From assembly GCA_019561615.1 (NCBI GenBank), contig JAHEQA010000045.1, forward strand, positions 35,740 through 72,536: a DNA stretch of 36,797 nt, in the 5' to 3' direction. Shown here piece by piece: positions 28,374 through 33,768 of the stretch. Both the position numbers and the translations under genes were made by a program. Source of the DNA: Methanothermococcus sp. SCGC AD-155-E23. GTDB lineage: Archaea > AGJL01 > Methanococci > Methanococcales > Methanococcaceae. Position 1 is the stretch's first letter; each line of letters starts with the position of its first letter. Under the pieces are notes generated by a model. It ran no database searches and was not told the DNA's origin. It was given only the letters and a program-made list of their open reading frames with translations.

Positions 28374-28449
28374 TGGTGCGCCAGTCGGGATTTGAACCCG
28401 AGTTGCTGGCTTGGAAGGCCAGAGTGATACCAGGCTACACCACTGGCGC
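28374..28449 (-). tRNA. tRNA-Gly (TCC), CCA encoded
   Basis: GCGCCAG acceptor stem, anticodon arm CTGGC-CT-TCC-AA-GCCAG, T-loop GTTCAAATC, 3' ACCA. Confidence 0.96.
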
Positions 28450-28458
28450 ACTACAAAG

Positions 28459-28531
28459 TGCGGCCTCCGGGATTTGAACCCGGGTACCGGCCGTGGCAGG
28501 GCCGTATGATACCAGGCTACATCAAGGCCGC
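28459..28531 (-). tRNA. tRNA-Gly (GCC), CCA not encoded
   Basis: GCGGCCT acceptor stem, anticodon arm CGGCC-CT-GCC-AC-GGCCG, GTTCAAATC; 9 nt upstream of tRNA-Gly(TCC). Confidence 0.96.
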
Positions 28532-30293: not shown

Positions 30294-30357
30294 GATTTTT
30301 CACCAGTTTAATATATTAAAAAAAGAGGGAGAACATTGAAAACAGAAAAATAGTGGT

Positions 30358-30598
30358 TATCCCTCAACACTAACACCATTCCTCATCCTTGGCCTACGCC
30401 ACGTCAGAATGGCTAACCCTATGTTGAGGGGTTATGGGGATTTTTACTATACCCTGATCATCCCCAGGGAAGAACTCCCCTGTCACAGGGCTCACCCTCA
30501 AAATCCCCTTAAATTTAAGTATCCCTTCAATATCGAACCCGCTATCATCGCAGGGGTAATCCCCCTATGCTCCATGTGGGTCGGTTCATTGAAGGGCA
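30358..30598 (-). ncRNA. Three-hairpin box H/ACA-type pseudouridylation guide sRNA (AUA boxes), predicted 23S rRNA targets U2504, U1917 and U1915 (E. coli numbering)
   Basis: Hairpins at 30523-30596, 30436-30508 and 30361-30430. Each has a perfect 9-bp basal stem, an internal loop, an upper stem, a (U)GA...GAUGA K-turn and AUA directly 3' of the stem. It has its own TATA box and a downstream T-tract. Confidence 0.88.
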
Positions 30599-31567: not shown

Positions 31568-32191
31568 TCATCTGTAGATACTGTGTAAAACCTTCAGGCA
31601 CTCTATTGTCATCTTCTTCCCTATCTCATCTAAGATATATGGAGTTATAGGTTCCCCATCTTTTATATGTTTCCCAGTACCTACCACGGTGTGCCCCTCC
31701 TCTTTAAGTTTAAGGTACCTTGCAGGACCCCTTGCATACTTGGCATCTGAGACCTTCACCTTCTCATCTATACCGAAGACCCCATCTGTACCTATGGTCT
31801 TTATCCCCCTCTTTTTACAGTAGTCTATTATCATGAGTCTTGTTGGAAGGGTATCTCCTCCAGCGATACAGATTATAGCAACGTCACCCTTTATCATATG
31901 GAGGTTATCCACCTTTATGTTCTTGGGAATCCCTACAACCCTCTCACTGTAAAACCTCTCTAGGAATTTAACCTTGTATTCTCCAACCTTTCCTCCAAGT
32001 CTTCTATGGATGATGTCGTTCCTCTCTATCTTCGCCTCGTCAAATAGATATATCTTCTCAGGACCTCCCCTATGAACCTCCATTAAATTCATTGCAACAC
32101 GAACTCCCAGTCTACCACATCCAATGATAGATACCTCCCCCCTTGGACGTAATCTCTTCTCCAGGTTTTCCACATCTTCCATGGTTATCAC
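31568..32191 (-). CDS. hcgE: ThiF/E1-like FeGP cofactor biosynthesis protein HcgE
   Basis: P.GEVSIIGCGRLGVR, VHRGGP, IAGGDT.P, GVFG, GTGK.IKD.EPITPYILD match my recollection of the HcgE family. Confidence 0.8.
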   Translation of the reverse strand: MITMEDVENLEKRLRPRGEVSIIGCGRLGVRVAMNLMEVHRGGPEKIYLFDEAKIERNDIIHRRLGGKVGEYKVKFLERFYSERVVGIPKNIKVDNLHMIKGDVAIICIAGGDTLPTRLMIIDYCKKRGIKTIGTDGVFGIDEKVKVSDAKYARGPARYLKLKEEGHTVVGTGKHIKDGEPITPYILDEIGKKMTIECLKVLHSIYR

Positions 32192-32263
32192 TATTGTTCT
32201 GTTATCTTAAACAATTGATATAAAAATAAGAAATTATTAAAAACAGTAAAAAAGGGAAAAAAC

Positions 32264-32400
32264 AGTACTATCAAAGACAGAAGAGATATACCCACCCTTG
32301 GAAAATCGTATTTTCATCGAAGCCCCATGGCTACTCTATACGACCGCCGTATGGGTGGGCCTGTCTCCGCAGTATCATCTTGGATCAACTGCGTACTACT
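32264..32400 (-). ncRNA. Structured H/ACA-like sRNA with an extra K-loop hairpin (possibly HgcC-related)
   Basis: Minus strand shows AGUAC/GUACU closing stem, CGCAGU-UGA-UCCAA-GAUGA-U-ACUGCG K-loop, GAGACAG/CUGUCUU stem, GCCCACCC/GGGUGGGU basal stem, pocket, GUCGUAU/AUACGAU stem, K-turn and AUA box. It has its own TATA box and a T6 tract. Confidence 0.82.
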
Positions 32401-32417
32401 ATATTAATCCCCCATGG

Positions 32418-32430
32418 TATATAAACTTTT
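32418..32430 (-). promoter_or_regulatory. BRE/TATA promoter of the second sRNA
   Basis: AAAAG-TTTATATA, with the same AAAGTTTATATA core as the promoter at 30622-30633, immediately after the cfbB stop. Confidence 0.75.
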
Positions 32431-33768
32431 TTAACAGTGGACTAGGGAGGAGGCTAGATAGGGGTTGGCAACAGGGTGTTGATGTGCATAACCTCCAAGT
32501 ACCCTACCATCTGGGGAGAGGAGTCCATCCATACCATTAACCATACCCCTACCTCTCTCTACCCTATAGGCAAACCTTCCCCTTATTCTCACTACCTTTG
32601 AGTAGTGAAACTCATGGGCCTTGAAGTTAACACCTTTTCTACCTATGGGACAGTTCTCTAAGAAGGTTCCAATTACATAACTTAGACCCTGTACCTCCTT
32701 AGTCATTACACTGTCACACTCCAACAAACCTACCATCTCCACCCCATCTATAGATCTACTTAGATACATGAGACCTCCACACTCTCCGTATATCTTACCC
32801 TCAAAATCCCTTATAGATTCAATCATAGATCTGTTACTACTTAACTCCCTTGCAAATAACTCTGGATATCCTCCACCGAAGTAGAGTACGTCACAGTTGG
32901 GAATTTCAGAATCCCTCAAGGGGCTGAAGAACTTGATATCTCCACCGTTCTCCCTGAGGGCATCGAAGGTGTCCCAGTAGTAGAAGTTGAAGGCCTCGTC
33001 ATAGGCCACCCCTATACTACACCTCCTCCTATCTATATGCCAAAGCCTAGTATCCCTCCTCTCTCCAAAGTCTACACTGTCACCTATCTCCACTATCCTC
33101 TCCAGGTCTAGACACTCCTCAACTACAGAGGCCCAGAGATCTATATATCTCTCTATCCTCTCCCTATTCTCAGGTGTTGGTACAAGGCCTAGATGTCTCT
33201 GGGGCACCTCCAGTCTTTCATCCCTGGGTATACCTCCAAGTACCTCTATATCTGGCAGGTAGTAGGATACAGCCTCTTTTAACTTCCTGTAGTGATTCTC
33301 CCCTCTGACCCTGTTGAATATAACCCCCTTAATATTCACATCCCTGTCGAAACTTCTAAATCCCTTTATAATCGCTGCAGCACTTCTTGTTAAACTTCGA
33401 GCATCTACTATGAGTATTACAGGGGCCTCCAGGGCCTTGGCTACAGAGGCGGTGGAACCTATGTCGTTGTAGGGGGATATACCCTCGTATAACCCTCTAA
33501 CACCCTCTATAATACTAATATCTTTGTCCCTGGAGTTTCTCCAGAACAACTCCCTTATCTGCCACCTGTCCATAAAAAAAGAGTCTAGGTTTCTACTGTA
33601 GTTCCCACTTGCAGTGGTGTGATAGGTAGGATCTATGTAATCAGGACCTACCTTGTAGGGTTGTACCTTGTACCGCCTAGAAAGTGCCCTCATTATCCCA
33701 GTGGATATAAGGGTCTTACCTACCATGGAGGATGTACCTGCCAGCACTACCCTTTTTAAATTCTTCAT
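32431..33768 (-). CDS. cfbB: Ni-sirohydrochlorin / cobyrinate a,c-diamide synthase (CfbB/CbiA)
   Basis: [61 protein letters not shown]. CfbB versus CbiA specificity cannot be resolved by eye. Confidence 0.85.

Follow-up and report, generated by a model that had tools for sequence, protein, structure and literature searches.

The 36,797-nucleotide (nt) window analyzed here, a stretch of the genome of Methanothermococcus sp. SCGC AD-155-E23 (hereafter the source genome; the assembly is 86% complete, 1.04 Mb, 42.9% GC), carries on its minus strand a small RNA (sRNA) gene that, by its sequence and fold, is of the box H/ACA type, probably transcribed independently, and kept in single copy throughout the order Methanococcales. 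Archaeal H/ACA sRNAs are known as a kind; this family is absent from Rfam 15. The invariant guide pocket is complementary to both strands of helix 31 of 16S rRNA, and the reading that we prefer, tentatively, is that the sRNA would act within an H/ACA small ribonucleoprotein (sRNP) as a guide for the modification of a uridine in the helix-31 loop. The parts of the gene are listed below in the order of transcription, with window coordinates; K-turn and K-loop stand for kink-turn and kink-loop, and ANA denotes the box downstream of the hairpin.

32257-32400, minus strand: the sRNA gene as delineated from the sequence, apparently TATA-driven, with a predicted RNA length of about 135 nt

32418-32432, minus strand: the putative promoter, with the TATA box TTTATATA at 32418-32425 and an A-rich stretch resembling a B recognition element (BRE) at 32426-32432

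32368-32393, minus strand: the 5' K-loop hairpin, stem CGCAGU/ACUGCG around U-GA, the 8-nt loop UCCAAGAU, and GA-U

32361-32367, minus strand: 5' strand GAGACAG of the outer (closing) helix, which pairs with 32274-32280

32290-32360, minus strand: the H/ACA-type hairpin, comprising lower stem, pocket, upper stem, K-turn and apical stem-loop

32353-32359 with 32291-32297, minus strand: the lower stem CCCACCC/GGGUGGG, 7 bp plus a G.U pair

32344-32352, minus strand: the 5' pocket strand AUACGGCGG, with GGCG at 32345-32348

32314-32336, minus strand: the K-turn, with GA at 32335-32336 and, on the bulge side, GAU plus GA (GAUGA) at 32314-32318

32319-32334, minus strand: the C-stem GUAGCC/GGCUUC with the loop AUGG, within the K-turn region

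32298-32305, minus strand: the 3' pocket strand UUUUCCAA

32287-32289, minus strand: the ANA box, here AUA, followed by a 6-nt pyrimidine spacer

32274-32280, minus strand: 3' strand CUGUCUU of the outer (closing) helix, pairing back to GAGACAG

32257-32268, minus strand: the 3' tail, GUACU at 32264-32268, which can pair with the 5' end, and then T6 at 32257-32262

The original prediction for this locus, made from the letters of the window, had proposed an independent GC-rich minus-strand sRNA gene with its own promoter, and the TATA box on that strand bears this out, as does the GC content, which is 0.51 at 32300-32399 versus 0.25-0.26 in the rest of the spacer. The K-loop hairpin and the H/ACA-like hairpin with its K-turn and AUA box had been proposed as well; both are there in the sequence, and the structure of the latter is supported by covariation. 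The T6 end is also present, although just outside the 3' limit, 32264, assigned to the element in that prediction; the run is likely to be the terminator. Transcription would begin at 32394-32397 or nearby, which we take to be the start from the usual archaeal spacing to the TATA box, and the promoter and terminator signals together suggest that the gene is expressed. Of the 36 homologues, 35 have a TATA-like box, located 59-81 nt ahead of the H/ACA hairpin at a distance that goes with the length of the 5' arm; the T-run holds no fixed position across the homologues. As a single sequence, the sRNA has a minimum free energy of -44.8 kcal/mol (z = -2.48), with 2 of 200 shuffled sequences folding equally well.

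The sRNA is conserved, with compensatory changes, across the entire order, far beyond chance expectation. BLASTN searches recovered the element in its entirety from 11 of the 12 other Methanothermococcus genomes and the core from 13 of the 17 Methanocaldococcus genomes. The hairpin sequences from 21 genomes were aligned using MAFFT (alignment A2), and a covariance model, R1, was built from this alignment; the genera counted here and below are Methanothermococcus, three further genera of Methanococcaceae (g2, g3, and g4), and Methanocaldococcus. The search with R1 detected the sRNA in 39 of 40 Methanococcales genomes, with one to two matches each (Methanothermococcus 11/12, g2 1/1, g3 7/7, g4 2/2, Methanocaldococcus 17/17), and the sole genome without a match is 54% complete. 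In the source genome, the sRNA is present in a single copy, and the window hairpin scores 96.7 bits (E 1.2e-18). A search at the ‘phylum’ level produced matches from Methanococcales only; no match came from 21 genomes of another archaeal phylum, a result that says little given that the search had no positive control there.

In A2, 93.3% of the pair cells hold standard pairs, compared with 31-48% when the partners are slid, and 8 of the 22 pairs change on both sides. When 39 sequences (32 distinct) were aligned to the model, 91.6% of the cells paired versus 30-48% with slid partners, and the covariation score was reached by none of 500 shuffles. Covariation in relatives had been named in advance as a test of the prediction, and in this alignment 17 of the 22 pairs change on both sides, with at most 6 in the slid controls. 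The 39-sequence alignment was fitted to R1 and so is biased towards the structure, a bias from which the MAFFT alignment A2 is free. Within the 39 sequences, the lower stem is paired in 99.6% of the cells, with both-sided changes in 5 of its 7 pairs, and all 6 pairs of the C-stem show such changes. The GA and UGA of the K-turn are invariant (39/39), with the bulge side reading (G/A)AUGA, and so are the two A residues of the ANA box, which reads AUA in the window and, in most other genera, ACA. In the pocket, GGCG is invariant in all 39 sequences and UUUUCCAA in 38, the remaining sequence having one U fewer, in the midst of variable neighboring positions (column 10, U/C/A; column 12, A/C/U; column 17, G/A; column 71, G/U/A).

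Outside of the hairpin, two accessory elements recur. The 5' arm, a stem of at least 5 bp around GA...GA, is present in 35 of the 36 homologues, with 17 different stem sequences, compared with an occurrence of the motif in about 15% of random or shuffled 62-mers. It takes the form of a K-loop in Methanothermococcus, g2, and part of g3, and a full K-turn with a small stem-loop of its own in g4, Methanocaldococcus, and the rest of g3. Because no pocket is present and no conserved ANA box follows the arm, it is not a second guide unit; it is likely to represent a second L7Ae site devoid of a guide pocket. The second element is the closing helix, of which the original prediction had envisaged two tiers. 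The inner one, GAGACAG/CUGUCUU, has counterparts in 22 of 22 Methanococcaceae (4-9 bp, -2.3 to -11.4 kcal/mol, mean -7.1, compared with an average of -4.4 for non-cognate strand pairs from other clades), with clade-specific sequences: AGACAG/CUGUCU, UGACAG/CUGUCA, AGCAG/CUGCU, AGGC/GCCU, and GGACG/CGUUC. The outer one, the terminal AGUAC/GUACU pairing, is not retained in relatives and is particular to the source genome; the closest relative reads GUAACU, and the Methanococcus-type genes end directly after the inner helix.

A comparable closing helix was not found in 13 of 14 Methanocaldococcus sequences (mean +0.2 kcal/mol for the 14); in all 14, a run of T5-7 begins two nucleotides after ACA. 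The exception, in the Methanocaldococcus genome G028, is a 7-bp pairing of the AAGAAU/AUUCUU type (-5.4 kcal/mol) between the pre-hairpin nucleotides and a stretch beyond the T-run, which may be due to chance or may be a remnant of the closing helix. The family therefore comes in two forms, a classical one in Methanocaldococcus and a ‘clamped’ one, which is the form carried by the window. The closing helix may stabilize the RNA or the lower stem, or else may position the 5' L7Ae arm.

The assignment of the sRNA to the H/ACA type follows the geometry reported for productive archaeal guides, with a GA stem of about 10 layers counted from the pair that closes the pocket and the ANA box 14-16 nt 3' of that pair (Toffano-Nioche et al., PMC4652768). 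If G32344.U32305 closes the pocket, the stem counts 10 layers up to the second G.A and the ANA box lies 15 nt away; if G32345.U32304 does, the values are 11 layers and 14 nt, so that both the K-turn with its GA stem and the distance to the box agree with the archaeal pattern. The lower stem, 7 bp plus G.U, also falls within the 7-9 bp expected below the internal loop. The sRNA departs from the pattern in two respects. The ANA box is not free and single-stranded at the 3' end: together with its pyrimidine spacer, it sits inside an internal loop that is closed by the outer helix, here and in the other Methanococcaceae. Furthermore, no canonical bipartite substrate, with an unpaired 5'-UN-3', was found in rRNA or genome-wide.

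The latter result rests on several searches. From the pocket, the original prediction had derived the substrate UUGGAA-N(2-6)-GCCGUA and had reported no clean match to a known rRNA site, which our scans corroborate. The strict form of this pattern has 0 matches in the source genome; anchored scans of 16S and 23S rRNA in several registers gave at best 9 of 13; no canonical target, with arms flanking U-N, was detected in the 16S and 23S rRNA of the source genome or of G005, G010, G023, and G026; and there are no canonical sites with 2 unpaired nt anywhere in the source genome, where the best scores are 11 of 13. The same scan, when applied to the H/ACA RNA at 30357-30430 of the window, recovered its canonical helix-69 site of 23S rRNA, GGUAAC-UA-UAACCCUCU, which makes the negative outcome meaningful. 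Several near matches were considered and set aside. UUGGAA-U-GCCGUAG and similar sequences, with gaps of 1-3 nt, lie on a C/T-rich strand in apparent coding sequence, not in tRNAs, and were judged to be chance matches. There is a likeness between the pocket strands and the anticodon arms of tRNA-Val(UAC), tRNA-Ala(UGC), and tRNA-Gly(UCC), and a pairing with the D-arm and anticodon stem of tRNA-Ala would be possible; tRNAs were dropped as targets for lack of a U in the gap.

A different kind of complementarity is apparent in helix 31 of 16S rRNA, which has the layout 5'-UUGGA-UUCAA-CGCC(G)-3', with UUCAA as the loop. UCCAA of the pocket is complementary to UUGGA, the 5' strand of the helix, and GGCG is complementary to CGCC, the 3' strand; in the source genome, this second pairing is extended to five pairs, with CGCC(G), by the C at 32349. 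The corresponding 16S segment, UUAAUUGGAUUCAACGCCGG (20 nt), is identical in all 54 copies from 30 genomes. The second U of the loop is U914 of M. jannaschii and lies at about nt 929 of the 16S rRNA of the source genome. RNAalifold closes the pocket with GG/CC pairs, as follows from the geometry of such a guide, which becomes self-complementary when it is directed at the two strands of one hairpin. The description of the sRNA as an orphan in the original prediction, which stands with respect to canonical targets, is therefore probably too strong, the invariant pocket being able to pair with both strands of helix 31.

Under a relaxed rule, which asks for one block of 5 or more and one of 4 or more Watson-Crick pairs with 2-6 nt including a U between them, the helix-31 site is the sole match in the 16S rRNA, the partial 23S rRNA, and 32 tRNAs of the source genome, and also the sole 16S match in G005 and G023; in these two genomes, there are three 23S matches, none common to both. 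In constrained cofolding, with the self-folding of the target subtracted, the helix-31 site ranks 3rd of 154 in G005 and 4th of 155 in G023, and the sites ranked above it pair through a single arm or contain a gap of 9 nt. The weight of the match comes not from its existence but from its position, which is among the few sites that are known to be guided by H/ACA RNAs in other organisms. In Pyrococcus, the Pf9 pocket has been reported to be complementary to nt 905-917 of 16S rRNA, around U910 (PMC2094053), and Pab160 to modify U922 of 16S rRNA in vitro (PMC2377435). In Sulfolobus islandicus (S. islandicus), sR435 is reported to guide 16S-U930, the equivalent of yeast 1-methyl-3-(3-amino-3-carboxypropyl)pseudouridine (m1acp3-pseudouridine) 1191, through a ‘markedly weak’ pairing with bulges and mismatches (PMC11077068). 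In eukaryotes, snR35 of yeast and human SNORA13 (ACA13) guide modification of the helix-31 U, the first step of m1acp3-pseudouridine formation that precedes Nep1 and Tsr3 (PMC2853112, PMC4872110).

Were the sRNA a helix-31 guide, the sRNP would operate as follows. L7Ae would bind the upper-stem K-turn and probably the 5' K-loop arm as well, and Cbf5, Nop10, and Gar1 would assemble on the lower stem and the ANA box; the closing helix of the Methanococcaceae would clamp the base of the hairpin, leaving the ANA box in an internal loop rather than at the 3' end. Pairing of the guide UCCAA with UUGGA and of GGCG (plus the C here) with CGCC(G) would open helix 31 and present the loop UUCAA to Cbf5, whereby the second U would be converted to pseudouridine. 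This pseudouridine would be the substrate of Nep1, yielding m1-pseudouridine, where Nep1 exists, and the site would be served by Tsr3, which would add the acp group. MjNep1 has been reported to methylate position 914 of 16S rRNA only as pseudouridine, the in vivo modification of U914 in M. jannaschii being unknown (Wurm et al. 2010, PMC2853112). Among the 40 genomes of the order, Nep1 (PF03587) is found in 18 (Methanocaldococcus 16/17, g4 2/2), and Tsr3 (PF04034) in 39, including the source genome; given this patchiness of Nep1 and the near ubiquity of Tsr3, the helix-31 modification pathway differs within the order. With Nep1 not found in the genus, the product in Methanothermococcus would be pseudouridine or acp3-pseudouridine rather than m1-pseudouridine, if the target is right. 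Co-occurrence with Nep1 was considered as support for the helix-31 reading and discarded, the gene being present in 18 of 40 genomes and the sRNA in 39 of 40. Cbf5 was identified in 36 of the 40 genomes, including 30 of 30 good ones, and Nop10 is present in the source genome.

A number of observations weigh against the helix-31 reading. The pairing consists of 5 bp plus 4-5 bp, with five target nucleotides (U, U, C, A, A) unpaired where a canonical guide would leave two, and even a third unpaired target residue has been reported to be unfavorable (PMC4652768). In the canonical register, there is a U.U mismatch 5' of the target U and the 5' guide is unpaired. At least one relaxed match occurs in 52-77 of 300 shuffled 16S sequences (17-26%), and 381 such matches are found in 2.09 Mnt of the source genome. 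Guide and target are both invariant, so that no guide-target covariation signal is possible. Nep1 was not found in Methanothermococcus (0/12), g2 (0/1), or g3 (0/7), although the sRNA is kept in these genera. As for the enzyme itself, Cbf5 was not found in the 86% complete source assembly, with 11 of the 12 other Methanothermococcus genomes encoding it, and Gar1 is marginal in the source genome (27.9 bits versus a cut-off of 29.3). Finally, that the uridines U910 and U922 of Pyrococcus are the same helix-31 loop U is itself no more than most likely, judging by the numbering and by a ‘P site’ remark. The pairing is thus non-canonical and statistically weak by itself, and we consider it suggestive.

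An alternative that we regard as unlikely, and that nevertheless survives better than the others, is that the sRNA is a true H/ACA guide for some other substrate, such as an mRNA, another small RNA, the spacer of a pre-rRNA, or a tRNA missing from the assembly, with the helix-31 match being a coincidence. A relaxed match is indeed expected by chance about once per 5-6 kb, and the 16S site at ~813-818 and the 23S site at ~1026 score as well as or better than helix 31 in cofolding, although these are among the sites with one arm only or the 9-nt gap. The searches provide no obvious replacement: the genome holds no canonical site with two unpaired nucleotides, where 11 of 13 was the best score, the near-perfect matches with a 1-nt gap that were inspected are those on the C/T-rich strand in apparent coding sequence, and the 32 tRNAs have no relaxed match. 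Moreover, a pocket that is invariant across the order calls for an invariant substrate, which favors rRNA.

Somewhat less probable still, in our estimate, is a non-modifying RNP of the H/ACA type, either a chaperone that holds helix 31 of 16S rRNA open, akin to the action of snR30/U17 on 18S rRNA, or a scaffold for two L7Ae molecules. Five unpaired nucleotides are a poor geometry for catalysis, a helix encloses the ANA box, the 5' arm is a surplus L7Ae site, if it binds, and the sRNA persists in genera without Nep1; in addition, sR666, a pocket-less K-turn hairpin RNA of S. islandicus, has been reported to co-purify with Cbf5 (PMC11077068). All of this has to be set against the complete preservation of the catalytic geometry (a 10-layer GA stem, 14-15 nt to the ANA box, and a lower stem of 7-8 bp), the fully classical 3' end of the Methanocaldococcus form, and the activity of weakly paired guides reported at the same site in Sulfolobus (PMC11077068). 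There is also a more speculative scenario, to which we likewise assign a low probability: the clamped RNP would be a dedicated helix-31 machine with two L7Ae sites and an ANA box fixed within its internal loop, and its pocket would invade both strands of helix 31 with the five-nucleotide loop left free. It would keep the P-site hairpin open while the 30S subunit assembles, serving primarily as a chaperone and only secondarily, if ever, as a pseudouridine synthase, and would hand the loop over to Tsr3 (and to Nep1 where present). If true, no earlier archaeal H/ACA RNP would have had such an snR30-like, non-guide role, and an enclosed ANA box would prove to be compatible with Cbf5 function.

The least credible alternative, membership in the HgcC family or association with IS200/IS605 elements, derives only from the mention of HgcC in Methanococcales in the original prediction and can be dismissed with near certainty: the HgcC model (RF00062, gathering score 50 bits) has 0 matches in the source genome, with the M. 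jannaschii control matched; in G026, the HgcC match (C1:23835-23963) and the sRNA (C1:750844-750920) are at different loci; the sRNA is single copy, not multicopy; and its neighbors in the window are cfbB, a ThiF-like gene, nadA, and priS. More generally, neither the window nor any of five homologous loci has a match to an Rfam 15 family at its gathering score, and the archaeal H/ACA models, HgcE, HgcF, HgcG, snoR9/Pab21, and those of the Pyrobaculum sR2xx series, gave no match at threshold. At E<=10, the region 32150-32500 matched no Hgc family, and the only H/ACA model to appear was PyrR208 (Pyrobaculum sR208), over the K-turn region (12.8 bits, E 4.5, gathering score 64).

The two genes that flank the sRNA in the window are as follows.

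32431-33768, minus strand: cfbB (NCBIfam F430_CfbB, 633 bits)

31568-32191, downstream of the sRNA: a ThiF-like open reading frame, weak match to ThiF-family models (E 6.5e-6)

The location had been given as between cfbB and hcgE. The former is secure; the label of the latter is plausible, its identity coming from weak ThiF-family matches only. The promoter region of the sRNA abuts the cfbB stop codon. The two genes are adjacent at 5 of 5 Methanothermococcus cfbB loci and at 0 of 4 in Methanocaldococcus, and because this synteny is restricted to the genus, the sRNA is a gene of its own rather than an untranslated region of cfbB or of the hcg-like gene.

Other RNAs were noticed along the way. 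A second H/ACA-type sRNA lies on the minus strand at 30357-30508 of the window and consists of two hairpins, each with a K-turn followed by AUA; R1 matches its 3' hairpin (22 bits, E 0.012), whose pocket, AUAGGGUUA / GUUAGU, matches helix 69 of 23S rRNA canonically (in G005, at 12.5 of 15 positions). This second sRNA probably corresponds to the ‘first sRNA’ of the original prediction and to the M. jannaschii L2015 motif (PMC4652768); the one M. jannaschii H/ACA motif mentioned in the accessible literature is a helix-69 guide (PMC4652768). The 23S rRNA of the source genome (C32:229-2027) is matched over 1799 nt of the 2987-position model and is incomplete or mis-assembled. R1 also matches, with 46 bits, an H/ACA-like hairpin in one Methanocaldococcus genome (G034:C1:1225313-1225384) that has an ACA box and a different pocket, UUGGCGCG / UUUACAAA. 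Two adjacent tRNA genes are located at 28377-28531 on the minus strand (Rfam tRNA, 65.4 and 58.1 bits) and were called tRNA-Gly(UCC) and tRNA-Gly(GCC) by ARAGORN.

The significance of the sRNA stems from its possible target. Helix 31 belongs to the P site of the ribosome, and the target base is heavily modified in eukaryotes and some archaea; the sRNA is a concrete candidate for the guide of the pseudouridine at position 914 of M. jannaschii 16S rRNA that Nep1 requires. The helix closed over the ANA box, the K-turn arm without a pocket, and the five unpaired target nucleotides probe the accepted rules of H/ACA RNA recognition by Cbf5, and a covariance model of the family would allow its annotation in 39 genomes. 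To our knowledge, an ANA box enclosed by a conserved helix, a pocket-less K-loop arm, and a loose two-strand grip on helix 31 have not been described, and in the main text, without supplements, of the open-access literature we found no account of an H/ACA RNA of Methanococcales that lies at this locus or is directed at 16S helix 31. The Methanocaldococcus orthologue may have been seen as an unnamed GC-rich transcript in the older M. jannaschii screens (Klein 2002, Thebault 2006); Klein 2002 reportedly includes further GC-rich M. jannaschii transcripts (HgcA, HgcB, and HgcD) that are not in Rfam, and one of these could be the orthologue.

Among the known systems, the eukaryotic snR35 and SNORA13 are two-hairpin snoRNAs with H and ACA boxes and no K-turn, and their relation to the sRNA is one of functional analogy only. 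HgcC (RF00062) resembles it in being a GC-rich small RNA of Methanocaldococcus and differs in the lack of covariance-model similarity, in locus, and in copy number. Extra modules on archaeal H/ACA RNAs have precedents in Pab19, whose H/ACA motif is preceded on the 5' side by a small conserved stem-loop, and Pab21, with a transcript shared with a C/D-box RNA (PMC2377435, PMC4652768), although neither is described as having a K-loop arm together with a helix that encloses the ANA box. Closer in architecture are Pf9 and Pab160, for which there is no Rfam model and which, as described, resemble the sRNA in having one guide hairpin with an upper-stem K-turn, a lower stem, and an ANA box; however, the Pf9 pairing flanks the U in the usual manner (PMC2094053), whereas here the nucleotides beside the target are unpaired, and the available description of Pf9, on which the comparison is based, mentions neither a 5' K-loop arm nor a closing helix. 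Also compared by description only, S. islandicus sR435 differs in having eight targets and a plain single hairpin, and provides a precedent for a loose guide at the helix-31 U (PMC11077068).

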